This document shows positions 1,284-22,149 of a stretch of DNA of 31,629 nt, piece after piece. A program made the translations under genes and the position numbers. Numbering within the stretch: position 1 is the first letter of the stretch; each line of letters starts with the position of its first letter. Source of the DNA: an uncultured Thermococci archaeon (GTDB lineage Archaea; Methanobacteriota_B; Thermococci; Thermococcales; Thermococcaceae); the NCBI GenBank assembly GCA_964615185.1, contig CAZTOS010000020.1, forward strand, positions 1 through 31,629, written 5' to 3'. Under the pieces are notes generated by a model. That model had not been told where the DNA came from. It saw nothing but the letters and a program-made list of their open reading frames with translations, and searched no databases.

Positions 1284-1330
1284 GTTCCCCCCTCCAATTT
1301 ATATTTTGAAAATGTTAAAAACAAAAATGC

Positions 1331-2482
1331 TCACGAGCCCTCTAGACCTAATTCTTTAACTTTTCTCGCTATTTCATTCCCTACTTCGTATGTTTTGCTA
1401 TTACCTCCAAGGTCGTAAGTTCTAACTTTTCCCTCTTTTAGAACTTCTACAATTGCATTAAGGATGAGGTTGTACCCCATTTCTTCTCCCAGTTCTCTCA
1501 GCATAAGAGCCCCCGCCCATATTGCTGCTATTGGATTAACGATAAACTTTCCTTTGTATTTTGGAGCAGAGCCATGGATTGGTTCAAACATACTAACTCC
1601 TTTAGGATTTATGTTCCCTCCTGGAACAAGACCTAAACTTCCCATCAATGCTCCTCCTAAGTCAGAAAGTATATCTCCAAATAAGTTTGGGGCAGTTATT
1701 ATCTGGTATCTTTCTGGGGCTCTTACAAGATGCATTGCCATGGCATCCGCAAATTCGAATTCGTAGCTTATACTAGGGTATTCTACGGCTACTTCTTCAA
1801 TGCTTTTCCTCCAGAGTGAGTATATGTGTGTGAGGACATTGGCTTTATCAACAAACGTGACTTTTGATCTATTGTCCCGAAGAGCGTACTCAAAAGAGTA
1901 TTTTGCTGTCCGTTTAGCACCTTCTTTGCTTATAATCCCAATTTGATATGCAAGTTCTGTAGTATCGGAAGAAATATTGATATCCAAGTCAAATTTTACT
2001 TTATAAAGCCACCGTACTACTTCTAATTCTTCTTTTGTTTTTCTGTGTTTAACTTGTCCTCCAATCCCAATATAAAAGTCTTCTGTGTTTTCTCTTATAA
2101 TTACAAAGTCTATATCTTTAGAAGTTTTATTTTTTAATATTCCTCTTACGCCGGGTAATAGCTTTATTGGTCTTAAATTTATATATTGATCAAAGTAAAA
2201 CCTAATGGCTAATACGATGCCCTTCTCGAGGACTCCAGGTTTTACTCGTGGATCGCCAACAGCTCCTAAATATATGGCATCAAAGCTTTCTAAAGTTTTT
2301 AAGTCTTCCTCTGATAACAATTTTCTAGTGGTTAGATAATACTCGGCTCCAAATGGGAAATATTCCCATTCAAGAGTTATCCCAATTACTTCAGAGACAG
2401 TATCAAGCACCTTAACGCCTTCTTGAATGACCTCGGGCCCTATTCCATCTCCAGGAATAACTGCAATTTTATATTTTTTCAC
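1331..2482 (-). CDS. Isocitrate/isopropylmalate/tartrate-family beta-decarboxylating dehydrogenase (IPMDH-like)
   Basis: IAVIPGDGIGPEV, INLRPIK, IIRENTEDFY, DKANV, NLFGDILSD, FEPIHGSAP; GTG start. No leuA/leuCD nearby, so leuB is not assigned. Confidence 0.92.
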   Translation of the reverse strand: MKKYKIAVIPGDGIGPEVIQEGVKVLDTVSEVIGITLEWEYFPFGAEYYLTTRKLLSEEDLKTLESFDAIYLGAVGDPRVKPGVLEKGIVLAIRFYFDQYINLRPIKLLPGVRGILKNKTSKDIDFVIIRENTEDFYIGIGGQVKHRKTKEELEVVRWLYKVKFDLDINISSDTTELAYQIGIISKEGAKRTAKYSFEYALRDNRSKVTFVDKANVLTHIYSLWRKSIEEVAVEYPSISYEFEFADAMAMHLVRAPERYQIITAPNLFGDILSDLGGALMGSLGLVPGGNINPKGVSMFEPIHGSAPKYKGKFIVNPIAAIWAGALMLRELGEEMGYNLILNAIVEVLKEGKVRTYDLGGNSKTYEVGNEIARKVKELGLEGS

Positions 2483-2497
2483 CTCGTTTAACCTCCT

Positions 2498-4327
2498 TTA
2501 TTCAATTTCCAGCTCTCGTAATTTTTCGTTAGAAACAGTTCCATCTTCATTCCATCCTCTTAGCCTGTAGTACTCTTGGAGATTATAGTTAAGTTCTGGA
2601 ACGTGTCCATAACTTCCTCCGGGGGGATCGAGGGGTTTAAAGATTCGAGGAGGCAGATTGTCATGTTCTCTTCGTATTCCTTGAAGGTTGTTAATAACTC
2701 TCTTTATGTTGAAAATTCTCTCTCCAATTTTCATAGCTTCTTCTATAGTAATTTCTTCTCCTGTTACTGCATTTAGTGCCTTTATTACAGTGGGTAGTTT
2801 AGTTCCACCATATAAGCAGAATCTACACATCACTTGTGCATCTAAAAATTCGCACATATCTTGAATAAGTTTTACTGCCCTTGGCTTTGATTTGGTCTCA
2901 AACCTGTCCAAAGGCTTTGGCAGTCCAATTTCTGGGAAGGTTAATCCTTTTTCAATGTAGTATGTAGACGCATAAGTATGACACGCACCTCTATTTGAAG
3001 TTGCATAAGCAAGAGCCCAAGATTCAAAAGCTCGTGGGTCATGCATGGGAAGTTCTAATCCCTTCACGTGCATTGCAAATTCGTCGGATTCTTTATTTAG
3101 CTGTTGTGCCATGTTTTTTACTCCTTCTGCCAATAAATCACCAATTCCTTCTCTCTTGGTTATCTTTTCAATAAGCTGTAAAATTGCTTTGCCATTCCCC
3201 CATGAGATTTCCAGTCCACCAGTTTCACTTAAAATACCTCTCTCTATGCATTCTATAGTAAAGGCAATTGTAACGCCTGTTGATATTGTATCTAGTCCAT
3301 AGGCATTACACATATAGTTGGCTTTTAATATCGTTAATAGGTCATCATTTAAAACTAATGTTCCAAATGCTGCAACTGTTTCATATTCGGGCCCATCTAC
3401 AATCTTTTTCTCTTTATCTGGTAATTCTACTATTCTTCCGCATCCTACTGGGCATGCTTCACAGTGGTACTGCTTTCTAAGCACAGTCTTTGCCATTGTT
3501 TGCCCCGAAATTTTTTGTACTTTTTCTTTATCCCACTCTCCCATTGTAAAGTTTTTAATTGGAGTATCTCCAAGCTCTACTAGTGCCTCGAGCATACCAC
3601 TTGTGCCATATTTATGAAGAATCTCTCTTGCCGAAGAATTCATGGCAGCGATAATGCTCTCTTTAACAGTCTTTCGGAATTTCTCTACGTTCTCTATTGG
3701 TGGCTTTTTACTTCCTTTTACCGCTATAGCTTTTAGTTTTTTAAAACCCATAACTGCCCCTAGTCCTGTTCTTCCAGCAGCACGCCCTCCATCATTTATT
3801 ATTGCAGCATATTTAACCAAATTTTCTCCAGCGGGGCCTATACATGCAATCTTAGCATTGGGAATTTCTTTTTTTAGAATTTCTTGTGTTTCATAGGTTG
3901 TTTTGCCCCAGAGATAGGAAGCGTCTTTAATTTCTACATTCTCATCTTCTATGGTTATGTAAACTGGATGTTCTGCCTTTCCTTCAATAACTACTCCGTA
4001 ATATCCAGTTCTTCTTAATTCTGGACCAAAAAAACCACCAGAACTTGCCTGCCCCCAGATGTTGGTCAGTGGAGAGATTGCACTTACAAAGTATCTACTG
4101 GAAAAGGGAAATCTTGTACCAGTGAGTGGACCAACGGTAAATATTAGTGCGTTTTCTTCACTAAAGGGCTCTATTTTTCCTTTCTTTTTTATTCTGTCGT
4201 ACATAAGTTTTGCCGCTAGCCCAGATCCTCCAATGTATTTTTTCAGGATTTCTGAGGGTAGTGCTGCTTCTTTAATAGTGTCATTTGACAAGTCTATTTT
4301 CAGAAGTTTTGCTTCATATTCGTCCAT
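2498..4327 (-). CDS. Aldehyde:ferredoxin oxidoreductase family tungstoenzyme (609 aa)
   Basis: SPLT...SSGGFFG, GRAAGRTGLGAVMG-x-KKLKAI, CEACPVGC 4Fe-4S motif, GPEYET, GLDTISTG, RGACH. Start moved to ATG 4327 (MDEYEAK) after RBS GGAGGG; the ORF-track extension overlaps the SDR. Confidence 0.95.
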   Translation of the reverse strand: MDEYEAKLLKIDLSNDTIKEAALPSEILKKYIGGSGLAAKLMYDRIKKKGKIEPFSEENALIFTVGPLTGTRFPFSSRYFVSAISPLTNIWGQASSGGFFGPELRRTGYYGVVIEGKAEHPVYITIEDENVEIKDASYLWGKTTYETQEILKKEIPNAKIACIGPAGENLVKYAAIINDGGRAAGRTGLGAVMGFKKLKAIAVKGSKKPPIENVEKFRKTVKESIIAAMNSSAREILHKYGTSGMLEALVELGDTPIKNFTMGEWDKEKVQKISGQTMAKTVLRKQYHCEACPVGCGRIVELPDKEKKIVDGPEYETVAAFGTLVLNDDLLTILKANYMCNAYGLDTISTGVTIAFTIECIERGILSETGGLEISWGNGKAILQLIEKITKREGIGDLLAEGVKNMAQQLNKESDEFAMHVKGLELPMHDPRAFESWALAYATSNRGACHTYASTYYIEKGLTFPEIGLPKPLDRFETKSKPRAVKLIQDMCEFLDAQVMCRFCLYGGTKLPTVIKALNAVTGEEITIEEAMKIGERIFNIKRVINNLQGIRREHDNLPPRIFKPLDPPGGSYGHVPELNYNLQEYYRLRGWNEDGTVSNEKLRELEIE

Positions 4328-4392
4328 TTTTGTCCCTCCTTCAATGTTAGTGAGAAAAAGATAAAAAAGTCCGATACTAACGAACTTTGTTA

Positions 4393-5157
4393 TCAATAAG
4401 GGCATCTCCCCCCAGTAACGTTCCAAGCTGCTCCGGTAACAAAACTTGCTTTTTCTGAGGCTAAGAATAGTATTACCTCAGCTATTTCTTCAGGTTTTGC
4501 AAGTCTTCCGAGAGGTACTTTACTTGCAAGTCTCTTCTTTTCTTCTTCACTCATCTGTCCTAAGAATGGTGTTTCAGTTATTCCGGGGACTACACAGTTG
4601 ACATTTATATTATAAAGGGCTACTTCCAAAGCTAAGGCTCTAGTAAATGCTATAACTCCAGCTTTTGAAGCATCGTATGCAGCCATATTTGGATTTGGGT
4701 CTTTACCTGCGACAGATGAAATGTTTATGATTTTTCCCTCTTTTCTCTGTATCATATGTGGGATAACCTCTTTACATACCAAGAACATACCTTTGAGATT
4801 TACACTCATTACTTTATCCCAGTTTTCTTCGGATGTCTCCCATACTGGCGCTACTTGGCCTAAGATGCCAACACAATTCACCAAAATGTCAATTTTTCCA
4901 TATTTATTTAAAACCTGTTCAACCATCTTTTTTACGTCCATTGCATTACTAACATCACACTTAATTGCTATAGCTTCCCCTCCTTCTGTCTCAATTTCCT
5001 CTTTTGTTTTTTCTGCCCTTTTTATATCTATATCCACTACGACAACTTTTGCACCTTCTTCAGCGAATTTTTTGCACGCTGCTCTTCCCATTCCGCTTCC
5101 ACCGCCAGTTACTACAACTACTTTACTTTCAAATCTTTTGTTACACATTTCTCTCAC
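4393..5157 (-). CDS. Classical short-chain dehydrogenase/reductase, predicted NAD(H)-preferring
   Basis: TGGGSGMG Rossmann motif, acidic residue after beta-2 (VVVVDID), catalytic S...YDASK; 4-bp overlap with the panF stop. Confidence 0.95.
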   Translation of the reverse strand: MREMCNKRFESKVVVVTGGGSGMGRAACKKFAEEGAKVVVVDIDIKRAEKTKEEIETEGGEAIAIKCDVSNAMDVKKMVEQVLNKYGKIDILVNCVGILGQVAPVWETSEENWDKVMSVNLKGMFLVCKEVIPHMIQRKEGKIINISSVAGKDPNPNMAAYDASKAGVIAFTRALALEVALYNINVNCVVPGITETPFLGQMSEEEKKRLASKVPLGRLAKPEEIAEVILFLASEKASFVTGAAWNVTGGRCPY

Positions 5158-6617
5158 CCATAGAACTTTTCTGTGATCTCTTTAGGGGGGGCTGGAGTAG
5201 CTAATGCTACAATTACAAATACTACTGCTCCTATTAAGAGGGCTGGCACAATGGGATGAAGATTGTAAAAGTTTGAGCCATATTTATAGTATAGGATAAC
5301 ATAAGTTAACGTTCCTGTAATCATACTGCTTATAGCTCCATATTTATTTGCTCGTTTCCAGTATAGGCCAAACACATAGGGCCATAGGAATGTAGCTTCT
5401 AACCCTCCAAGTCCAAATAGATTTAGCCATATAAGTAAATCTGGTGGGTGAAGTGTAGAGAAAGCAACTATTGCAACTAACACTGTAGTGACCAAGTATG
5501 TCAATTTCCTTAGTGCTCCCTCTTCAAGATTTGGTCTTAGATAAGTAGCATAAAGATCCTTTACAATGGCTCCAGTTGTTATTACTAACTGAGAATCTAT
5601 TGTGCCTAGGGCTGCTGCTAATATTGACATCAAAATAATTCCTGCTAACCATTCAGGGAATATCTTCAATGTTAGCAAGGGGATGGCTAAATCTGATCTA
5701 GGAATTTCGGGCAAAAAGTATCTAGCAAACACTCCAGCAAGATGCAATGATACTACAAGCCATCCCATTACTATAGTTCCAATTACTATTCCTCGATGAA
5801 GAGCTTTTGAATCTCTATAGACAAGACCTTGAACAGAAACATGTGGTAGACCAACCGTAGCAAAACACACTAGCACCCAGAAGCTTGCTACCCATAGGGG
5901 ATTTAGAGTACTCATGTTGGGTCCATATGGGGTTACTAATCCAGGATCTATAGAACGTAGATGAGAGATTATTGGTGTTACTCCTCCGGCTTTTATGATT
6001 GAGCCGCCTATTAAGCCTATTGACCCGACTGTCATTATGACTCCGAAGATAGTATCAACTAATGCTACTCCTCTCATACCTCCCAAGATTATGTATACAA
6101 GAATCGCTATGGCGAAAAGTGCTAGTCCATAAGTATATGGGAGTCCTGTAATAGTTTGAAAAATGGTTGCTCCTCCTATAAATTGTGCCATCATAGATGC
6201 AATAAAAAACAGTACTATGCTTACTGAACCAATAATAGTGATTATGTCACTTTGATATCTTGCTTTTAAAATATCTACTACAGTTATAGCATTTACTTTC
6301 CTAGCTACTATTGCAAATTTTTTGCCTAGTACGGATAGACTTACTAAGGTCACAGGTATTTGAACTGCAGCTAGTAAGACCCATCCCAGTCCAAATTTAT
6401 ATGCAGCACCAGGACCTCCAACAAAGCTACTAGCACTAAGATACGTTGCAGTTAACATCATCGCTAATGCAAATCCTCCAATTTCTCTCGATGAAACTAA
6501 CCAGTCCTCTTTAAACGCTTTTCCTTTTGAACCTCTGTATGCCCAATATCCAATTAGATAAATTAATGCTAAAAATACAAGTGCTGAAATAGTGGGTATA
6601 ATTCTAAGTTCGCTCAT
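5154..6617 (-). CDS. panF: Sodium/pantothenate symporter (SSS family)
   Basis: Near-identical to recalled bacterial PanF segments: LAMMLTATYLSASSFVGGPGAAYKFGLGWVLLA, LGKKFAI, SFWVLVCF, DSKALHRGI, IWLNL..GGLEATFLWP, HPIVP. Preceded by yhdT as in bacteria. Confidence 0.9.
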   Translation of the reverse strand: MSELRIIPTISALVFLALIYLIGYWAYRGSKGKAFKEDWLVSSREIGGFALAMMLTATYLSASSFVGGPGAAYKFGLGWVLLAAVQIPVTLVSLSVLGKKFAIVARKVNAITVVDILKARYQSDIITIIGSVSIVLFFIASMMAQFIGGATIFQTITGLPYTYGLALFAIAILVYIILGGMRGVALVDTIFGVIMTVGSIGLIGGSIIKAGGVTPIISHLRSIDPGLVTPYGPNMSTLNPLWVASFWVLVCFATVGLPHVSVQGLVYRDSKALHRGIVIGTIVMGWLVVSLHLAGVFARYFLPEIPRSDLAIPLLTLKIFPEWLAGIILMSILAAALGTIDSQLVITTGAIVKDLYATYLRPNLEEGALRKLTYLVTTVLVAIVAFSTLHPPDLLIWLNLFGLGGLEATFLWPYVFGLYWKRANKYGAISSMITGTLTYVILYYKYGSNFYNLHPIVPALLIGAVVFVIVALATPAPPKEITEKFYG

Positions 6618-6888
6618 CTAGCTTCCCCTCCCTATACTCTGTGTCAAATGGAACTTCCTTGAAGTATTTAGTAACGACGATATATACAATTATACTAAAC
6701 AAAATCCACCCTAAGAGCACACTATAAAAGAACCAATCTGGAAAGCCTAGTATGTAGTTGTAGTTAGTGGGCCCACGTTTTCCCATTCCAAAGCCAAATA
6801 ATGCCCACCATACTACATAAAACAGGGAGAGGCCAATGCCAATTTTTGCTTCTTTTGTGGCAATTTTATATCTGGGGTCTCCTTCCAT
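6604..6888 (-). CDS. yhdT: YhdT (DUF997) small membrane protein, PanF partner
   Basis: DPRYKIATKEA, two TM helices, GFPDWFFYS, FKEVPFD; overlaps the panF start. Confidence 0.88.
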   Translation of the reverse strand: MEGDPRYKIATKEAKIGIGLSLFYVVWWALFGFGMGKRGPTNYNYILGFPDWFFYSVLLGWILFSIIVYIVVTKYFKEVPFDTEYREGKLDERT

Positions 6889-7071
6889 ATTTCTTGCACC
6901 TCAATTTTTAATAATTTAATAGCTAAAATTAAATTTTGTTTTAATTATGTTAAAATCTTTAATGAATAAAATCATCATTATAGATGGTATGGTTTAATCT
7001 TTTGAAAAATTTTAGTATAAAGTAAAGAAAAAATATTATGTCAATATCGCAATGATTTCTATGGTGGTTTT
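6889..7071. promoter_or_regulatory. AT-rich divergent promoter region between the two island operons
   Basis: 183-bp very AT-rich gap between divergent starts with several TATA-like boxes; RBS GAGGTG on the minus strand and GGTGG on the plus strand. Exact TATA boxes cannot be fixed. Confidence 0.6.
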
Positions 7072-8729
7072 ATGGCAATTGAAGAAAGAGTAGCTGTTAA
7101 AGAAGGGTTTGCTACTCCTGAGGAAGTACAAAAAATGTCATATGCTAAGTCAGAAAAAGAAATTTTGAGAGTGAGAGCATTGATAATTGCTGCTATAGGC
7201 TCCGCTATTCTAACAGCAAGTTCCATATATGTGGCCTTAAGAATGGGAGCACTACCTTGGCCTACTATTTTTGTCGTCCTCCTCTCTATGAGTATCCTAA
7301 AAGCCTTAGGGAATACCAATCTAAATGAAATTAACGTAGCCCATACAGGAATGTCAGCAGGTGCATTATTAGCTGGGGGTTTGGCATTCACTATACCTGC
7401 TTTATGGATGTTAGGATATACTGAAGTGCCTATGGTTCAAATATTCCTTATATCCATAGGTGCAGCCATACTGGGAACTTTGATCACAGCGTTGATAAGA
7501 GATGCCATGATAATCAGATTGAAATTGCCCTATCCCATAGGAACAGCTGCATTCTTAACTCTAAAAGCAGGAGATGTAGGAGGAAAGAAAAGAAATACTT
7601 TGTTTGCATCTTTGTCGATTTCAGCCATATTTGTGGCTATTAGAGATTGGTTTGGAAAGATTCCTGCACTTATACAGTCTTCCACTCTAGCAGCTAAAAA
7701 CATATTTGTGGGTATAGGTCTATATCCGATGGCTGCTGGAATTGGATATATAATTGGTCCCTTGTACATAGGAACATGGACATTGGGGTCAATTTTATCA
7801 TACTTGATAATTATCCCTATAGCCACCAACATCCTGGGATACTCTGTAGATGCCTCTTTAGCATTTACAAGAAGTTTGGGCATTGGGATGATAATAGGGG
7901 GGGAATTGGCATAATAGTGAAAGAGTTAGTACGAAGCAGAATTAGAGATACCATTAGAAGTATAAAAGACCAAATGGGAGGATTATTAAGATATTTCCTA
8001 GTCTTGGCTATAGTATCAGTTATACTCTTAATAGTTGCAGGCATTCCTTGGTACGCTGCATTAATTGGAGTTATTGGAACAATGATAGCTGGAATTATGG
8101 CAGCTACACTAACAGGTCAAACGGGGATAGATCCCATGGAGATATTTGGAATATTGGTGTTACTAGTTGTGATGGCCTTATTTAATATAAATATTGTAGC
8201 TGGAGTGCTTCTTACGGCATTCGTAGCTGCTGCTGTAGGTGTTGCTGGAGATGCTTTAAATGACTATAAGGCGGGATATTTGTTAGAAACTCCTCCAAGG
8301 TATCAAATTCTAAGTGAATTGGTAGGAGCTATTGTAGGAGCATTAACAGCAGGATTCGTTCTTAAAATGCTTCTAGATGTGTATGGCCCAACAGCTTTTG
8401 GTCCAGATAAGTTCTTTGTGGCTCCCCAAGCGTATGCAGTTTCATTAATGATTCAAGGAATTCCGAATTTGGCAGCATTCTTGTCAGGTATTATAGTCGG
8501 ATTTGTCTTGAGTGTGTTTAACATTCCTGCAATGACAATTGGGATTGGAATATACTTACCAATGGTAATGACACTACCAGCGGCTCTTGGAGGACTTGTG
8601 AGAGTAATTATTGACAAGAAGTATCCGCAATACTCAGAACTTGGCACAATTACTGGAGCAGGTTTGCTAGGGGGAGAGGGAATAGCAGGAGTTGTTATAG
8701 CTCTTGTCTTGTTTTTAATGAGGGGGTGA
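7072..8729 (+). pseudogene. OPT-family oligopeptide transporter split by a one-base frameshift (about 552 aa if repaired)
   Basis: 5' ORF has YVALRMGALPWP, NEINVAHTGMSAG, GLAFTIPA, LPYPIGTA. 3' ORF has LNDYKAGYLL, APQA, GIGIYLP, GLLGGEGI. Adding one G to the G7 run at 7897-7903 gives continuous ...GMIIGGGIGIIVKE.... Could be an assembly error. Confidence 0.85.
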
Positions 8730-8771
8730 TTATTTCTTTTATTTTTCCATTAACATCACAGAGGTGATACA

Positions 8772-9560
8772 ATGTATATAACAACACTTAGCAAACCAAT
8801 CGTTTCAGGCAACATAGTAATTTTGCCAATGAAAAAGCCAGAGGGAGGAAAAATTATTATAAATGGGATAGAAGCAAAGCCCGAAAATGTCGTTAAATAC
8901 GATGCTAGGGTTGATATAATGGATCCTACAACTAAAAAGCGTTGTTTTATTATAGAACATGTTCTTGGTCCTCTTCGGATGTTAGGAATAACGGATGCAA
9001 TAGTACTAGGACTGGATAAAACATGGAACTTTCTACGACCAGAGCATAGATTTGCGTACTCATTAGGACTAACACCTGAGGTTGTTGTTGGTAGAGAAGA
9101 CGGTAAGCAGCGCCCAAAATTAGAGGAAATAATAAACTCTGCAAGATTGAAAACAGATAAGCAATTTTACGTAAGTGTTGCTCAAGAAGTTTATTTTAAA
9201 ACAGTTGATATTTTTGGACATAAAGGGGAGATAACAATAACTCCTTTGCCACCTGAAAGTGGTATTGTACTGAACATTGAACTCTTTAAGAATTCTATTG
9301 AGGACATAAGGCTAGGAGAAAATGGACTAGAGGATAAGCACTTAGCAAAAAAGATATTAGATGCAAGAACTCCTTTTTTGATTGGGATTGAGAAGGAAGA
9401 AGCGTTATTTCACGCCATAGGGGATGTAATTGCAGATACAGTAGGATTAGGTAGACTTACCGATGCGAAAATTGATGTTAAATTAAACTTCTTTTATCAT
9501 TCATTAACGGTAGGAGCAATTAAAAGAGCAAAAACAATAAGAAGGGGGGCATTTCAATGA
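8772..9560 (+). CDS. LpxC-fold putative Zn-dependent amidohydrolase
   Basis: IEHVLGPLRMLGITDA ~ LpxC VEHLxAALxGLGIDN; ILDART ~ ISRART; FHAIGDVIAD ~ RHKxLDxIGD; YHSLT ~ GHALN. RBS GAGGTGA. Confidence 0.7.
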   Translation: MYITTLSKPIVSGNIVILPMKKPEGGKIIINGIEAKPENVVKYDARVDIMDPTTKKRCFIIEHVLGPLRMLGITDAIVLGLDKTWNFLRPEHRFAYSLGLTPEVVVGREDGKQRPKLEEIINSARLKTDKQFYVSVAQEVYFKTVDIFGHKGEITITPLPPESGIVLNIELFKNSIEDIRLGENGLEDKHLAKKILDARTPFLIGIEKEEALFHAIGDVIADTVGLGRLTDAKIDVKLNFFYHSLTVGAIKRAKTIRRGAFQ

Positions 9561-10579
9561 ATTTTATCTTTGAAAAGAGTATAGGGAGTTTGTTGCAATA
9601 TTTCAATAGGCCTTCATTAACAATGCATCGTGAAAAAAATGGATGGCATAACTTTAGATATGGGGAGCAAACTAAAGTAGCTATATATATAGAACGATTC
9701 GTTTCAACTCCAACCATAACAAACTTTGATATCGAATATCTTCAGAGGTTGTTTTCAGTAATATATTTAGTGGAAACTCTTGAGAGCACTTCTGACTCAA
9801 CATTGGGAGGCATTGATATCTACGTGTCGACTACTCCCTCTGAACTCCCAAAGGAATTTTACTCAAAAGTCCCAACATTAGTGTTAGAGCCGACAGAACT
9901 TTACTTCTCCACAGTTCACAATGGAGAAGCCGAGATCAAGGTATTACTTAAAAATGATATACCAAATATTGTGTCTAATATTTGGATTCAGGAGGATATT
10001 ATAGAGGATGTTTTCCTTGTTTTGAAAAAGATAATGTCTCTGAAACACAAGTACTATCCCATAGAACGGGGGAGTGAATTGTTCTTTCGAAAAGTATTTT
10101 TGCCAGGGACCATACTATTTGTGCCCCGTTCAGTTACAATAGATGATAAAAGCAATGTTGCTTTAATACTTAGAGCAAGTATCCCCCCAGAAACTAGTTC
10201 AAAGAATATCATAGAAAGCTTAGTAGAAAAAATAGGAAATAAAGATAAGATAAAAGAGGTTAAAATCCTTAAACAACCTGTGCGTGTCTTACCTCAACAA
10301 GAAATCCATAAAATAGCAGAGGAAACTTTCGTAAAAATATACAAGAGATTTCCTGAGTATGAGTGGTTCCCATTTTCAACAGTTTTCAATGATTTGGCTA
10401 AAGTAAATGAGTCTATACTCTCAATAGGGCCGAAGTCATATAGTGATATAACGTCCAGTAATGTTGAATTCGATGTGGATGTTAGTAAAGAATTTTCGAA
10501 TTTTATCTCAAACGTTATACAAAGAATTATACAAAGGGAGGGGATGAAGAATGAAAAAATGGATGGAAGATGTTATTAA
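9557..10579 (+). CDS. Hypothetical protein, probable catalytically degenerate M20 peptidase-fold paralog
   Basis: VLEPTELYFSTVHNGEAEIKV, LRASIPPET and C-terminal SIGP resemble M20 segments, but the HxDVV, EE and C-terminal His motifs are absent. ATGA overlap with the upstream gene. Confidence 0.55.
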   Translation: MNFIFEKSIGSLLQYFNRPSLTMHREKNGWHNFRYGEQTKVAIYIERFVSTPTITNFDIEYLQRLFSVIYLVETLESTSDSTLGGIDIYVSTTPSELPKEFYSKVPTLVLEPTELYFSTVHNGEAEIKVLLKNDIPNIVSNIWIQEDIIEDVFLVLKKIMSLKHKYYPIERGSELFFRKVFLPGTILFVPRSVTIDDKSNVALILRASIPPETSSKNIIESLVEKIGNKDKIKEVKILKQPVRVLPQQEIHKIAEETFVKIYKRFPEYEWFPFSTVFNDLAKVNESILSIGPKSYSDITSSNVEFDVDVSKEFSNFISNVIQRIIQREGMKNEKMDGRCY

Positions 10580-11834
10580 TTCTGTGGAAGAGATGGAAGA
10601 TGAAATAGTAGACTTCCTAAGAGACTTAATAAAGATACCAACAGAAAACCCTCCAGGAACTAATTACAAGAAGTTTGCTGAATTCTTCGGAAAAAGACTT
10701 GAAGAGTTTGGTTATAATGTGCATTATATTGAAGTTCCACCAGAGAGATTTGAAGAGTTAGTACCTTTTGCAACTCCCGAGTATCCTAGGGTAAATGTAT
10801 ATGCAGAGTCAAACAATGGAAAACCCAAGCCAGTACTTCATTTTAATGGCCATTTTGATGTAGTGCCGGCAGGCCCGGGATGGAGTGTGGATCCTTTTGG
10901 AGGAGTTATTAAAGATGGAAAAATTTATGGTAGAGGATCCAGTGATCAAAAATCAGGGTTAGTTGCCCAAGTATACGCGATAGAAGCCTTTAAAAGAGCA
11001 GGATACAAATTAAACGGAAAAATAGAGCACAGTGCAGTAGTCGATGAAGAAACTGTTGGAAACAGGAATGCTGGAACATACTATCTTGTTGAAAAAGGAA
11101 TAATTTCCAAAAACAAAGTTGATTATGTGGTTATAACTGAGTGCTTAGATCCAGATAGAATTTGTTTGGGTCATAGGGGAGCACTTAGATTTGAAATTAC
11201 TGTTTATGGAAAACAGGCTCATGGGTGCATGCCTTACTTGGGTATAAATGCTGGCATGAAAATGGCAAAACTCTTAAATATAATAGAATATGAGCTAGTC
11301 CCTCGACTCAAAGAAAGAATTACACCATTGCCTGTAGTTCCAGAAGAAGCGAGAAAAGCCTCAATTTCATTAGGGACACTTCACGCAGGAGAAGCCACAA
11401 ATTTAGTTCCATCTAGAGCCATAGCAACTTTTGATAGAAGGCTTAATCCAGAAGAAAACTTAGACATTGCAAGAAGGGAAATCTATGAAATATGTAAAGC
11501 TCTATCTCTTATAGACCCCGAATTTAAATATTCAATAAGAGAATTATACGCCACAGATCCTGTGCTTGTTCCAAAGGATCAGAAACTTGTAAAGATTTTC
11601 CAAGAGGCTATTAAATATGTGTATAATAAAGAACCAGACTTTGTATTAAGTCCGGGCACAGATGATCAAAGGTTTATAGTTCGTGATGCAGGTATAGACA
11701 GTTGCATTGTATACGGTCCAGGAAGATTAACTCAAGCTCATGTAGTTGATGAACATATATCAATTGAAGACTTATTGAATGGTGTCAAAGTCATGGCAAT
11801 AGCTGCAGGAATGCTCCTAGGAGTTTCAAGATAA
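10551..11834 (+). CDS. M20 family ArgE/DapE-like metallo-amidohydrolase
   Basis: NGHFDVVP, YGRGSSDQKSG, VDEET, ITECLDPDRICLGHRG, YGPG...AHVVDE; all metal ligands present. Confidence 0.93.
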   Translation: MKKWMEDVINSVEEMEDEIVDFLRDLIKIPTENPPGTNYKKFAEFFGKRLEEFGYNVHYIEVPPERFEELVPFATPEYPRVNVYAESNNGKPKPVLHFNGHFDVVPAGPGWSVDPFGGVIKDGKIYGRGSSDQKSGLVAQVYAIEAFKRAGYKLNGKIEHSAVVDEETVGNRNAGTYYLVEKGIISKNKVDYVVITECLDPDRICLGHRGALRFEITVYGKQAHGCMPYLGINAGMKMAKLLNIIEYELVPRLKERITPLPVVPEEARKASISLGTLHAGEATNLVPSRAIATFDRRLNPEENLDIARREIYEICKALSLIDPEFKYSIRELYATDPVLVPKDQKLVKIFQEAIKYVYNKEPDFVLSPGTDDQRFIVRDAGIDSCIVYGPGRLTQAHVVDEHISIEDLLNGVKVMAIAAGMLLGVSR

Positions 11835-11920
11835 TCTTTGTAAGTACTAATACTATTCCCTACTCATGCAAAAATAATAGAAAATGGCAAGGAAACAATT
11901 CCTTGTATAAAACTTTTGTG

Positions 11921-12439
11921 TTATTCTTTACTTCTTATTTTATTCAGATCTCGGGATTTTAAAAACCATGGTCTTTTTGAATCCTCATACTTATGTAGAA
12001 CCACTCTTGTTATTATATCCGTTATCTCTGGGAATCGTTTAATTAACAAGGAAATGAACCTATCTAGATCATCATTATCTACAAAGAACACATGAACTAA
12101 TAGATCGGAATCTCCAGTAATTTCCCAAACTTTTTTGACTCCTTCAATTTTTGAGATTTCTTGGGCAATTCTTTTTCGTACTGCTCGTGGGCATTTTATT
12201 TCCATAAAAACTTCAAGATTGTATCCCAAAGCTTTTGGATCTATCCCTATTGTAAACCGTTCAATGATCCCTCTTTCTTTCAGGCTTTTGACTTTGTTAT
12301 AGCACGAGACAATGCTCATACCGCATGCTTTACTTAATTGTCTATATGTTATTCTCGAATTTTCATATAATCTCCATAATATAATTAATTCATCTCGTGC
12401 TATTTTTTTGTTATTCAAACATAATCCCTCCATTTCCAC
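11921..12439 (-). CDS. Lrp/AsnC family transcriptional regulator
   Basis: HTH LYENSRITYRQLSKACGMS...KSLKERGIIERFT and RAM domain VWEITGDSDLLV. Start uncertain (GTG 12439, ATG 12433 or TTG 12418). Confidence 0.92.
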   Translation of the reverse strand: MEMEGLCLNNKKIARDELIILWRLYENSRITYRQLSKACGMSIVSCYNKVKSLKERGIIERFTIGIDPKALGYNLEVFMEIKCPRAVRKRIAQEISKIEGVKKVWEITGDSDLLVHVFFVDNDDLDRFISLLIKRFPEITDIITRVVLHKYEDSKRPWFLKSRDLNKIRSKE

Positions 12440-13415: not shown

Positions 13416-14630
13416 ATGAAAGACATCCTCCCTTTAAAAGGAATAAGGGTAGTGGCATTGGAACATGTCCTGACAGCTCCTTACTGTAGTATGATACTCG
13501 CAGATTTGGGTGCAGAAGTCATCAAGATAGAACGACCTGACGTTGGAGATGACAGCAGAAGCTTTGGACCTTTTGTAGATGACCAGAGTGGTTATTTTAT
13601 CAGCATAAACAGAAACAAAAAAAGTATTGCAGTTAATTTAAAAACTCCTGAAGGTCCAGAAATTATAAAAGAACTCATTAAGAAGAGTGATGTAGTTCTG
13701 GAGAATTTTAGGCCAGGAACTCTCAAAAAGTTTGGACTGGACTATGAAAGCGTGAAGCAAATTAAGCCCGACATAATATATGTTTCAATAAGTGGCTTTG
13801 GAAATGATACTGCTCCGGGATATAAAGGGCTCCCTGGATATGATATCATTGCTCAAGCTTATGGAGGGCTTATGGACATAACAGGACAACCGGATGGCCC
13901 ACCAACTAGAGTGGGAGCCTCTGTGGCAGATATATTTGCAGGAATGTATGCGGCAATAGGAATCTTAGCAGCAATTTACAAGAGGGAAAAAACTGGGGAG
14001 GGGAGTAGAATAGATGTCTCGATGGTAGACTCCATTGTTTCCGTCTTGGAAAATGCAGTAGTTAGGTATACACTCACAGGAGAGATCCCAAAAAGAATTG
14101 GAAGTAGACATCCGTCCATTGCTCCGTTTGATGTATTTGAGGCAAAAGATGGATGGGTGGTAATAGGAGTAGGTAATGATTCCTTGTGGCAGAGGTTCTG
14201 TAAAGCTATTGGAAAAGAGGAGCTAATGGATCACCCCAAGTATAAGACAAACAAGAAGAGAGTAGAGAATTATGATGAACTTAAGAAAATTTTAACAGAA
14301 TGGACTAAGACTCTTTCTGTGGCAGAAATAGTCAGAATACTAAGGGAAGCAGGCGTTCCTTGTGGGCCTGTAAACACAGTGAAAGACGTTGTGGAGGATC
14401 CAAATATTAATTACAGGGGTATGATAGTTGAGGTGGAACAGCCAAAAATTGGAAAAGTTAGAATTGCAGGCAATCCTTTAATGTTCTCCTTCTTGAAAAA
14501 AAGAAAGTATGCTCCAGCCCCAGCACCCCTACTTGGAGAGCACACAGAAGAAGTTTTAAGAAGTCTCTTGGGTTATAATGAGGAAAAAATAAAAAAACTA
14601 GCTGAAAAAGGAGTAATAAAAGTTGGCTGA
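13416..14630 (+). CDS. Family III CoA-transferase (CaiB/BaiF)
   Basis: PLKGIRVV, LADLGAEVIKIERP..GDDSR, NRNKKSIAVNLK, DVVLENFRPG, catalytic Asp in SVADIFAG, APLLGEHT. Confidence 0.95.
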   Translation: MKDILPLKGIRVVALEHVLTAPYCSMILADLGAEVIKIERPDVGDDSRSFGPFVDDQSGYFISINRNKKSIAVNLKTPEGPEIIKELIKKSDVVLENFRPGTLKKFGLDYESVKQIKPDIIYVSISGFGNDTAPGYKGLPGYDIIAQAYGGLMDITGQPDGPPTRVGASVADIFAGMYAAIGILAAIYKREKTGEGSRIDVSMVDSIVSVLENAVVRYTLTGEIPKRIGSRHPSIAPFDVFEAKDGWVVIGVGNDSLWQRFCKAIGKEELMDHPKYKTNKKRVENYDELKKILTEWTKTLSVAEIVRILREAGVPCGPVNTVKDVVEDPNINYRGMIVEVEQPKIGKVRIAGNPLMFSFLKKRKYAPAPAPLLGEHTEEVLRSLLGYNEEKIKKLAEKGVIKVG

Positions 14631-14679
14631 TTCTTGTTTTTGTTTTAATTTTTAGTCTAATCAGGGAGGTAGTTTATTT

Positions 14680-14808
14680 ATGAGCATTGAGAAAAAAGTG
14701 AAGGGGCTTTATGAAAAGAAGGAGAAAATTCTCAAAATAGGTGGGGAGGAAAAGATAGCAAAGCAGTATGAGAAAGGTAAGCTTACAGCAAGAGAAAGAA
14801 TCGAAAAA
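14680..14808 (+). pseudogene. mmdA: N-terminal stub (43 aa) of methylmalonyl-CoA decarboxylase alpha / acyl-CoA carboxyltransferase subunit
   Basis: GGEEKIAKQYEKGKLTARERIE is the carboxyltransferase N-terminal signature. Similarity then stops and the ORF runs through AT-rich sequence to 14949. Good RBS GGAGGT. Confidence 0.8.
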
Positions 14809-14935
14809 ACAGGAAATTATAACATCAAGATTGATTTTGAGATATTAGATGCAATTATTAATTTTGAAATAATAATGATTTTCTTTAAAACTTATTTAAC
14901 TGAAAATGACCAAAAAACAAAGGAAGTGAAAAACC

Positions 14936-15700
14936 TTATGGAATACTAAATCCAAGTCCTTTTAGGATCATTCTAATGGCTAGAAACGCTAGCACTACAG
15001 CGAAAGATCTTTTCAAATTGTGGGCTTTTATTCTTTTTGCGGTTCTTGCTCCTATTTGTGCCCCTATGATTAAGCCAGGAACTAAAACTAACAACCACTG
15101 AATTTCAATGTTTCCAAGTGCATAATGCTTTATTGCCCCACTTATACCTGTAAAAAAGATTGCAAAAATTGAAGTAGCTACAGCATAATGTATAGGAAAG
15201 CCCAAATACACTAAAAAAGGAACATTAATTGCTCCTCCCCCAAATCCTAAAAGTCCTGAGAGAATGCCGACTATAAATCCCCAAATGGAGAGCAATACAT
15301 AATTTGGTTTGAGCTCTTCAAGAGCAATTTGATGCGCTTCAATACTCTTTCCTCTAAACATTTTGATAGAGACAAAAAATAATGCCATTCCAAAAAATAC
15401 TTTTAGAATATTAGGACTGAGGTAGGAGGTTAACCAAGCACCAATATATGCTCCTAGGATAGAAGGAAATGCCAGTGATATTCCAGATTTATAATGGATC
15501 CTTTTTTGCCTAAAATATACAATAACTGCCGAAAGAGATGTAAATGGAATTGCCGCTAAGCTTGTTCCAACTGCGTGGTGTATTTCAACTCCTAAAAGAT
15601 TTAGAGTGGGGACTATCAAAAAACCTCCGCCCAATCCAAAAAGGGCGGCCAAGATTCCTATGAAGACGCCAACTGCGAAATAGCTGATATATTTGAGCAA
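14936..15700 (-). CDS. TSUP / TauE-SafE family membrane transporter
   Basis: Duplicated GLGGGFLIVP / GFGGGAINVP motifs, AVGTSL / AVATS, about 8 TM helices; TTG start. Confidence 0.92.
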   Translation of the reverse strand: MLKYISYFAVGVFIGILAALFGLGGGFLIVPTLNLLGVEIHHAVGTSLAAIPFTSLSAVIVYFRQKRIHYKSGISLAFPSILGAYIGAWLTSYLSPNILKVFFGMALFFVSIKMFRGKSIEAHQIALEELKPNYVLLSIWGFIVGILSGLLGFGGGAINVPFLVYLGFPIHYAVATSIFAIFFTGISGAIKHYALGNIEIQWLLVLVPGLIIGAQIGARTAKRIKAHNLKRSFAVVLAFLAIRMILKGLGFSIP

Positions 15701-19295: not shown

Positions 19296-20894
19296 ATGAT
19301 ACTTGGAATTCACGACGGCCATGATGCTGGAGCAGTTCTAATTAAAGATGAGAAAATTTATGCAGTTAATGAGGAGAGGCTTAATCGAATTAAGCACTAT
19401 CGCGGCTTTCCAGAGCTGAGCATAACCAAAGTGCTTGAAATGGCAAAAGCAAGTCCGGAAGAAGTTGAAATCATTGCAGTTGCTGGTATCTTTAGAAAGC
19501 GCTCCCGTCTTTTGGAGCTTGAAAAGAACTTAGCGAAGATTTTTGGAAAAGATTTCAAGAGAAAAGTTCTCTATGTTGAGCATCACCTTGCTCACGCAGC
19601 CTCAGCTTACCTCACTTCCGGCTGGAGAGAGGCTTTAGCTTTAAGCATAGACGCCGCTGGAGATGGCTTAAGCTCATCAATTTACATCTGCAGAGATGGT
19701 GAGATGATTAGGATTGCTCAAAGCACGTATCTTGACTCTTTGGGAGACTTCTACGCATCGGTTACAGAGCTTTTGGGATTTAAGCCTATGAGACATGAGG
19801 GCAAGGTGATGAGCCTGGCAGCTTATGGAAAGCCGAGCTATGATTTATCCGCAATAATTGAGCTTAACGGATTGACATTTGAGAATCATATTAAAGTCGT
19901 TGGAATTAAAGCAACCAAAAAGCTTGCTGAATTTTTTAGGTTCCCATTTGAGAAAGCTAAGGAAGTTTCTGCCAACTTAAAGAGGGGGAAACTCAGCGGA
20001 GAATTAGAGCAGAAAGCCATTGAAATAGCAGCATCAGCTCAGAAGCATCTGGAAAAGATTGTAGATGAACTTGGGCTTAAGCTTACAAAGTATGGACTGC
20101 CCTTGGCTTATGCTGGAGGAGTTGCACAGAATGTCAAGGCGAACATGATCCTCAGAAGGCACTTTCCAGATTTGTGGGTGTTCCCAGCAATGCATGATGG
20201 TGGTTTAGCCTTTGGAGCTGCTATCTTTGTCAAATCCCAGCTTGAAAGATTGGATAGTAAGTGGAAGCCATTTAAGCTGAATCATGTTTATTTGGGGCCT
20301 TTCTATTCTGAGGGCAAAATTGAGGAGCTTTTGAGGAAAGAGGGAGTTGCGTATGAGGAAATCAACGATGTTCCCAGCTTTGTGGCTGATTCCCTAATTG
20401 ATGGAAAAATCGTTGCATTCTTCCAAGGAAAAATGGAGTTTGGACCAAGGGCTTTGGGTAACCGCTCTATTTTAGCTGACCCAAGAGACGAGAGCATTAA
20501 AGAAAAACTCAACTTGGCTTTGAAGAGGGATGTATTTCAACCATTTGCACCCACGATTTTAGAAAAGAGGATTAGCGAGTATTTGGTTGACCCATATCCA
20601 AACAAGTTCATGACGATGGGCTACTATGCCACAGAAGAATTTGCAAGGGAAGCCCCAGCCGTTCTTCATGTTGACGGCACGACGAGACCTCAGACTCTTG
20701 AAAGGGAAGATAACCCAAAGTACTATGACATAATTAGGCTCTTTGAAAAGCAGAGTGGAGTTGGTGCTGTGCTAAATACTTCATTTAATATGCACGGTGA
20801 GCCGATAGTTTGCTCACCCAGAGATGCCCTTAACAGTTTCAGAAAGGCAAGACTTAATGGATTAGTTTTGGAGAAGTTTGCTGTTTATTTGTAA
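19296..20894 (+). CDS. NodU/CmcH-family carbamoyltransferase
   Basis: GHDAGA, EERLNRIKH, EHHLAHAAS, EGKVMSLAAYG, AGGVAQNV, EFGPRALGNRSILADP, LNTSFNMHGEPIV. Confidence 0.95.
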   Translation: MILGIHDGHDAGAVLIKDEKIYAVNEERLNRIKHYRGFPELSITKVLEMAKASPEEVEIIAVAGIFRKRSRLLELEKNLAKIFGKDFKRKVLYVEHHLAHAASAYLTSGWREALALSIDAAGDGLSSSIYICRDGEMIRIAQSTYLDSLGDFYASVTELLGFKPMRHEGKVMSLAAYGKPSYDLSAIIELNGLTFENHIKVVGIKATKKLAEFFRFPFEKAKEVSANLKRGKLSGELEQKAIEIAASAQKHLEKIVDELGLKLTKYGLPLAYAGGVAQNVKANMILRRHFPDLWVFPAMHDGGLAFGAAIFVKSQLERLDSKWKPFKLNHVYLGPFYSEGKIEELLRKEGVAYEEINDVPSFVADSLIDGKIVAFFQGKMEFGPRALGNRSILADPRDESIKEKLNLALKRDVFQPFAPTILEKRISEYLVDPYPNKFMTMGYYATEEFAREAPAVLHVDGTTRPQTLEREDNPKYYDIIRLFEKQSGVGAVLNTSFNMHGEPIVCSPRDALNSFRKARLNGLVLEKFAVYL

Positions 20895-20933
20895 TTTTTC
20901 GGTGTCATTTTTTCCAAATCGAATATTTTACAG

Positions 20934-20950
20934 CGGCAAAATTATAAGCC
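20934..20950 (+). promoter_or_regulatory. Putative BRE-TATA promoter of the aminotransferase
   Basis: cggcaaaa-TTATAA about 35 bp upstream of ATG 20980, followed by GGTGA RBS. Confidence 0.55.
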
Positions 20951-20979
20951 TCAAAGCTGAGTTCATTTTGGTGATTCTC

Positions 20980-22149
20980 ATGGCATTAAGTGACAAATTG
21001 GAGTTAGTTAGAGTTTCTGAAATTAGGAGGCTTTTTGATTTGGCTCAAGGCATTAAGGGAATAATCTCATTAGGAATTGGAGAACCGGACTTTGACACAC
21101 CAGAGCATATCAAAGAGTATGCAAAAGAAGCTTTGGACAAGGGACTAACGCATTATAGCCCTAATGCTGGAATCTTAGAGCTTAGAGAAGCGGTTGCTGA
21201 AAAGCTGAAGAGGGATAATGGCATTGATGCAGACCCTAAAACGCAAATTATGATAACCATCGGCGCTAATCAAGCCCTACTGATGGGCTTTGCAACGTTT
21301 CTTAAGGATGAAGACGAAGTTCTAATTCCCTCACCAATGTTTGTCAGCTATGCTCCCGCTGTGATTTTAGCCGGAGGAAAGCCCGTTGAAGTCCCAACTT
21401 ATGAGGAAAATGAGTTCCGCCTGAGTGTTGATGAGCTTAAGAAATATGTAACTCCAAAAACGAGAGCTCTGATACTCAACAGCCCAAACAACCCAACTGG
21501 GTCAGTTCTAACTAAAAAAGACCTTGAAGAGATTGCAGATTTTGCAGTCGAGCATGATTTGATTATTTTGAGCGACGAAGTTTACGAGTATTTTGTCTAT
21601 GATGGCGTTAAGAACTACAGTATTGCCTCCCTTGATGGAATGTTTGAGAGGACTATCACAATAAACGGCTTCTCAAAGACTTTTGCAATGACTGGCTGGC
21701 GTTTGGGCTTCGTCGCGGCTCCAGAGTGGGTTATTGAGAAGATGGTTAGATTTCAGATGTACAATGCGACTTGTCCCGTGACGTTTGTTCAGTATGCGGT
21801 TGCCAAGGCTTTGAGGGACGAGAGGAGCTGGAAGGCCGTTGAGGAGATGCGCAAGGAATACGACAGAAGGAGGCAGATGGTCTGGAAGCGCTTAAATGAG
21901 ATGGGACTGCCGACAGTCAAGCCTAAAGGGGCGTTCTACATCTTCCCACGCATAAAAGACACTGGACTAACGAGCAAAGAGTTCAGCGAGCTTATGATTA
22001 AGGAAGCAAAAGTTGTAGTAGTTCCGGGAAGTGCTTTTGGACAAGCTGGAGAAGGTTACATAAGGATAAGCTATGCAACAGCCTATGAGAAGCTTGAGGA
22101 AGCTATGGACAGAATGGAAAAAGTGCTGAAGGAGAAGAAGTTAGTATAA
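20980..22149 (+). CDS. Class I/II PLP aminotransferase (aromatic amino-acid aminotransferase-like, 389 aa)
   Basis: SLGIGEPDF, NSPNNPTG, SDEVY, GFSKTFAMTGWRLG. Start reassigned to MALSDKL after GGTGA. Confidence 0.95.
   Translation: MALSDKLELVRVSEIRRLFDLAQGIKGIISLGIGEPDFDTPEHIKEYAKEALDKGLTHYSPNAGILELREAVAEKLKRDNGIDADPKTQIMITIGANQALLMGFATFLKDEDEVLIPSPMFVSYAPAVILAGGKPVEVPTYEENEFRLSVDELKKYVTPKTRALILNSPNNPTGSVLTKKDLEEIADFAVEHDLIILSDEVYEYFVYDGVKNYSIASLDGMFERTITINGFSKTFAMTGWRLGFVAAPEWVIEKMVRFQMYNATCPVTFVQYAVAKALRDERSWKAVEEMRKEYDRRRQMVWKRLNEMGLPTVKPKGAFYIFPRIKDTGLTSKEFSELMIKEAKVVVVPGSAFGQAGEGYIRISYATAYEKLEEAMDRMEKVLKEKKLV

Follow-up and report, generated by a model that had tools for sequence, protein, structure and literature searches.

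The window, the whole stretch of 31,629 nucleotides of a contig from an uncultured Thermococci archaeon, carries a low-GC3 island with two oppositely directed sets of genes (Table 1). On one strand the genes of an OPT-family transporter, an LpxC-like protein, a 340-aa protein and an M20 amidohydrolase follow each other; the divergent operon holds yhdT, panF and the genes of an SDR, an aldehyde:ferredoxin oxidoreductase (AOR) and a decarboxylating dehydrogenase. The LpxC-like gene is found in 2 of the 133 genomes of the host's phylum, and its GC3 of 0.247 lies in the lowest 0.3% among 1220 long ORFs. The identity of the island to L001, a locus of another genus, and the low GC3 of the gene point to acquisition of the island by transfer. 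The OPT gene is broken by a 1-bp deletion near position 7898; both L001 and run X3 have it unbroken. As the near-identical run X2 does not cover the stretch near 7898, either a pseudogene or an assembly error is possible.

Table 1. Genes and features of the island, in order of position in the window.
Feature	Position	Strand	Basis
Low-GC3 island	1299..12392	.	92.8% DNA identity to L001; 2/133 phylum genomes, two different genera
Tartrate/isopropylmalate-type decarboxylating dehydrogenase, candidate 3,3-dimethylmalate dehydrogenase (inferred)	1331..2482	-	annotation, context
AOR, candidate for 4-dehydropantoate oxidation (inferred)	2498..4426	-	annotation, context
SDR, candidate pantoate 4-dehydrogenase (inferred)	4393..5157	-	annotation, context
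PanF sodium/pantothenate symporter	5154..6617	-	TIGR02119 533.9 bits, cut-off 328
YhdT/DUF997 small membrane protein, first of divergent operon	6604..6888	-	annotation
OPT-family peptide transporter, candidate pantetheine importer	7072..8729	+	split here; whole, 551 aa, in L001
LpxC-fold putative Zn amidase, 262 aa	8772..9560	+	residue conservation, profile alignments, AlphaFold model, Foldseek
M20-fold partner, no metal-ligand motifs; proposed second subunit	9557..10579	+	fold, motif scan, gene linkage
ArgE/DapE-type M20 amidohydrolase, candidate pantothenase	10551..11834	+	all four metal motifs intact
Lrp/AsnC regulator, island edge	11921..12439	-	annotation

The first-pass annotation had described the central protein as an LpxC-fold metalloamidase. 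The residues it named (E62, H63, A198-R199-T200, H214, D218, D222 and H243) are all present in the translated ORF, and profile alignment with E. coli LpxC (probability 56.7, E 1e-4) pairs E62/H63 with E78/H79, T200 with T191, H214/D218/D222 with H238/D242/D246 and H243 with H265. For a natural LpxC-FabZ fusion the alignment reaches a probability of 91.7 and an E value of 7.6e-7. The supposed ART motif stands in part: Thr or Ser at position 200 is constant (32 T and 12 S in 44 family rows), while the Arg occurs in 23 of 44 rows only. In a 38-row family alignment spanning 25-62% identity, just E62, H63, G107, H214, D218, D222 and H243 are invariant. With these invariant columns and a motif spacing that was reproduced by 1 of 20,000 shuffles, the residue match goes beyond chance. 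Over the 44 rows the predicted Zn ligands H63, H214 and D218 are kept in 43, 44 and 44, the predicted base E62 in 43, and the predicted acid H243 and oxyanion residue (T or S at 200) in all. The roles of the LpxC base E78, acid H265 and oxyanion residue T191 are described in PMC13342928.

The fold could be confirmed with an AlphaFold model. In a Foldseek search all 42 matches listed among the top 50 ranks were LpxC chains (best E 8e-12, TM 0.60-0.68 among the matches listed), and the model has the two-domain LpxC fold over its whole length. All 28 matches of the family profile in the PDB below E 0.03 were likewise LpxC chains, the best at 7e-11. In Pfam the sole match of the window protein is LpxC (PF03331) at E 0.006, with 16.6 bits below the cut-off of 27, and NCBIfam gave no match at 1e-5. 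PF03331 is matched at E <= 0.01 by 22 of 44 family members, with 8.8e-9 as the best value. An absence of lipid A from the host had been assumed, and in the whole genome, which is 95.6% complete, LpxA stays below its cut-off and LpxB and LpxK are unmatched. A Thermococci record holds the locus closest to that of the window, and kinship tables likewise place the host in Thermococci. The protein would have LpxC-type chemistry, yet by substrate binding, score and pathway it stands outside LpxC (EC 3.5.1.108).

LpxC, a major antibiotic target, has a fold that has been tied to one reaction; the family described here keeps the catalytic core and rebuilds the pocket. LpxC Insert II, the acyl tunnel, spans F192-A215 according to PMC13492277. 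It is lost here, as the short spacer had suggested: T200 and H214 are separated by 11-14 residues in 44/44 rows, compared with 46 in E. coli LpxC, and the model has merely one 4-residue helix in this region. The extra insertion seen in the first reading is also real, since the G72-D110 stretch has 35-38 residues in the family and 16 in E. coli LpxC. The new insert (21 residues, about 83-105) carries W85, F87, R89, P90 and R93, while R46 sits near the Insert I loop; Arg is conserved at 46, 89 and 93 in 42, 43 and 38 of the 44 rows. The Lys of the HK motif is absent, A215 standing after H214 in the window protein. None of the 44 rows has Lys at this K239-equivalent position (A, S, V, C or T in 43, W in one). 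Position 201, the equivalent of F192, is Pro in most rows, and the N-terminal GxGLH motif of LpxC occurs in 1 of 44. According to PMC13342928, K239 (pyrophosphate, 6-OH) and the F192/F194 patch serve binding of UDP-glucosamine and its sugar. The new Arg/Trp insert may, together with the M20-fold partner, take the place of Insert II as substrate pocket.

An exhaustive search yielded at least 45 family representatives at 50% identity clustering. The 38-row alignment combines 32 of these 45 with the query and five relatives closer to it; 12 fragments and a single copy with 95% identity were left out. Among 30 clusters looked up, members are named, where the sources do so, as Odinarchaeia, Njordarchaeum, Promethearchaeota, Hydrothermarchaeota, a Saccharolobus MAG, a Euryarchaeota archaeon and one Desulfocucumaceae bacterium. 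By these names the family is mostly archaeal, with Asgard lineages among its hosts. In a tree of the 44 family rows and two true LpxCs, the branch that separates the family has a length of 3.3 changes per column, the midpoint root implying no direction. The top feature match in the ESM Atlas is an automatic cluster named 'hypothetical protein' (score 0.94, 210/256 features) with 101 members, 74% of them from Archaea and 26% with PF03331, and without assigned function; this cluster is probably the same family. In the literature searched we found no published description of the family apart from this automatic cluster. The family is relevant to the question of how LpxC arose and cautions against reading archaeal 'LpxC' matches as lipid A synthesis. 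Separately, divergent LpxC copies, 30-50% identical to the E. coli protein, were seen on true plasmids of several Gram-negative genera.

The neighbourhoods of homologs were compared over 29 loci (L001 and 28 metagenome loci), which were all picked by one motif and fall into about 6 related groups, hence they are not 29 independent cases. This comparison brought out a near-constant M20-fold neighbour and pantothenate/CoA genes, neither of which the first-pass annotation had mentioned. In the window the partner gene overlaps the stop codon of the LpxC-like gene. Across the loci the partner adjoins the LpxC-like gene on the same strand in 26/29, the spacing being between -3 and 146 bp. Depending on the lineage it lies upstream or downstream of the LpxC-like gene, and each of the three loci without an adjacent partner is truncated by a contig end on one or both sides. 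Within the phylum its strong matches lie in the two genomes that carry the LpxC-like gene; a third match is weak and M20-like. Halorussus litoreus and Salinigranum salinum also have the partner. The top Foldseek matches of the partner are LysK, DapE and ArgE (E 3e-14, TM about 0.6), in agreement with the ESM Atlas. None of the four metal motifs searched is present in the window partner, and neither the GxxDxK nor the final His motif was found in any of 17 partners. We propose that the partner binds the LpxC-like chain as a second subunit. The partner of a Njordarchaeum-like locus (L023, 6707-7984) is longer, with 425 aa, is still M20 in Pfam, and is perhaps less eroded.

Over the 29 loci we counted M20 in 19, SDR in 15, OPT in 11, the dehydrogenase in 10 and AOR in 9. 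PanF-like genes occur in 9 (8 at 40% identity or more) and a Dpp binding protein in 5, and 16 loci have an OPT or Dpp-binding-protein gene. PanF scores above cut-off in the window, L017 and L018, and in 3/133 phylum genomes, two of which carry the LpxC-like gene. The divergent operon fits the Pseudomonas route, in which pantoate is converted to 4-dehydropantoate, 3,3-dimethylmalate and 2-oxoisovalerate. Further clues to CoA fall on separate branches of the family tree. In L034 a type III pantothenate kinase gene (PanK-III, CoaX) lies directly 3' of the partner, and VorB-type genes are also present. The haloarchaeal L036 has LpxC-like, HAD and Nudix genes in consecutive order; the only NCBIfam match of the Nudix protein at E 1e-15 is CoA pyrophosphatase, with 82.9 below the cut-off of 134, and such a CoA-Nudix-like gene occurs in 1/11 haloarchaeal-type loci. 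L019 has PPS above cut-off, and L017 an omega-aminotransferase and an MMSDH-like gene, the latter just below cut-off. The neighbours in L023 (9 kb), L030 and L037 hold no CoA clue, the L037 symporter being far below the PanF cut-off. According to PMC12570885, PanK-III is unable to use pantetheine, and pantethine uptake is independent of PanF and unexplained; both points fit a step from pantetheine to pantothenate beside CoaX in L034.

The active M20 enzyme also has a context of its own. A protein 69% identical to it is encoded in G038 in the order yhdT-panF-M20 with an aminotransferase, on a contig with neither the LpxC-like pair nor an OPT gene. Among 29 matches to plasmids, six regions were viewed. 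Three from cultured haloarchaea have ALDH-SDR-M20 with an aminotransferase and MMSDH, where other amidases stand instead of the LpxC-like pair, and an alphaproteobacterial plasmid (Qingshengfaniella) has M20-Dpp-ALDH-SDR with a P1-family peptidase; the remaining two, from Azospirillum and Ideonella, have no such cluster. The LpxC-like gene is absent from all four plasmids with the cluster. Judging by G038 and these plasmid clusters, the M20 tracks pantothenate, and the LpxC-like pair resembles a second, exchangeable amidase tracking peptide importers. The M20s of L013/L014/L016 and L034 are just 30-33% identical to that of the window. In archaea and one alphaproteobacterium, the genes of ArgE/DapE-type M20s (window, L058 8706-10163, L042, L043, L046 and L047) have as neighbours either PanF or SDR, ALDH and beta-alanine genes. 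This M20 is a candidate orphan pantothenase in its own right.

Fold, catalytic residues, the lost Insert II and Lys and the extra insert support the first reading, in which the protein belongs to a Zn amidase subfamily repurposed for a new substrate. This best-supported general reading is very likely, with amidase activity itself as a prediction. By analogy to LpxC, H63, H214 and D218 would hold the Zn, E62 would activate water, T200 would steady the tetrahedral intermediate and H243 would protonate the leaving amine. More specifically, we tentatively favor a mononuclear Zn amidase on an LpxC scaffold that, with its dead M20-fold partner, hydrolyses imported pantetheine, or a close CoA fragment, at the beta-alanyl-cysteamine amide. 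The gene context suggests the following order of events. Pantetheine would be imported via OPT or Dpp and cleaved by the LpxC-like enzyme and partner to pantothenate and cysteamine, and pantothenate may also enter via PanF. The active M20 would then split pantothenate into pantoate and beta-alanine. SDR, then AOR or ALDH, and then the decarboxylating dehydrogenase could convert pantoate to 2-oxoisovalerate, and the beta-alanine could feed an omega-aminotransferase and MMSDH. It is possible, if still somewhat doubtful, that the two chains form a prokaryotic pantetheinase and, with the M20 pantothenase, OPT/Dpp and the pantoate-oxidising genes, a scavenging route for CoA fragments.

The substrate of the pair might instead be a different small amide or peptide with no relation to CoA, which we consider rather unlikely. 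One model would be the yeast DUG route for glutathione, which combines an OPT importer, an inactive-M20 subunit with a separate amidase, and an active M20 dipeptidase; gamma-glutamyl peptides would be an example of such substrates. Both systems consist of a peptide importer, a dead M20, an amidase and an active M20, and L023, L030 and L037 with their lack of CoA clues would be accommodated. However, this reading would not account for PanF above cut-off in so few genomes of the phylum, two of them carriers, nor for CoaX, PPS, the Nudix/HAD pair and the SDR that shares the operon in haloarchaeal loci. There are also differences from Dug2p-Dug3p/Dug1p in that the putative amidase has the LpxC fold and not that of a glutamine amidotransferase, no WD40 domain is present, and the context points to CoA. 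A cut at the pantoyl-beta-alanine amide (as a pantothenase, or from pantetheine to pantoate and beta-alanyl-cysteamine), with the M20 performing a remaining or redundant step, is unlikely. L015 and L017 hold PanF, SDR, AOR and dehydrogenase, and L017 beta-alanine genes, without M20 within 11-17 kb, and the conserved R46, R89 and R93 could bind a carboxylate. Against this, PanF in G038 and SDR/ALDH in the three cultured haloarchaea occur with the M20 alone, and two enzymes would be redundant in the 15/29 loci that have M20 at 40% identity or more. Retained deacetylation of an amino sugar without acyl chain (GlcNAc or UDP-GlcNAc) would preserve the ancestral chemistry and agree with the complete catalytic set, but is very improbable given the loss of K239 and the F192/F194 sugar patch (roles as in PMC13342928); no sugar-nucleotide genes were seen among the annotated neighbours. 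A role without catalysis, as a Zn-binding or scaffold subunit within an M20 complex, would explain the tight linkage to M20-fold genes, but is hardly credible when base, acid, oxyanion residues and ligands are kept at 25-60% identity and little else is.

Returning to the proposed pantetheine cleavage, the reaction would be that of pantetheinase (vanin, EC 3.5.1.92). Vanins are nitrilase-fold enzymes with a catalytic Cys, whereas the LpxC-like protein is a putative metal enzyme whose modelled LpxC fold is unrelated. The gene set of the island matches the steps of pantothenate degradation in Pseudomonas. The pantothenase (EC 3.5.1.22) is a protein that has not been identified, according to PMC10393543; in the island the neighbouring M20 is the first candidate and the LpxC-like pair the second. 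The context also gives testable candidates for the gene-less pantothenase and for pantetheine uptake, whose mechanism is unknown according to a 2025 review. If true, archaea and some bacteria would have a gene-level route to scavenge and burn CoA fragments, and the LpxC fold a second chemistry.

Some further genes were observed around the island. Phosphopantothenate synthetase has no match in the host genome, compared with one in each of 7/7 genus mates, probably because of the incomplete assembly. A TRAP solute-binding protein at 201-1283 adjoins the island and is missing from L001; some PDB relatives are pantoate binders. A carbamoyltransferase gene with NodU/CmcH-like domains (19296-22149) lies between ProRS and an aminotransferase. 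The stretch 13416-14949 holds a family III CoA-transferase, common to the window and L001 with 88.6% DNA identity, and after it an 89-aa ORF that clusters with a 522-aa carboxyltransferase-like protein of L001 and looks like a remnant.
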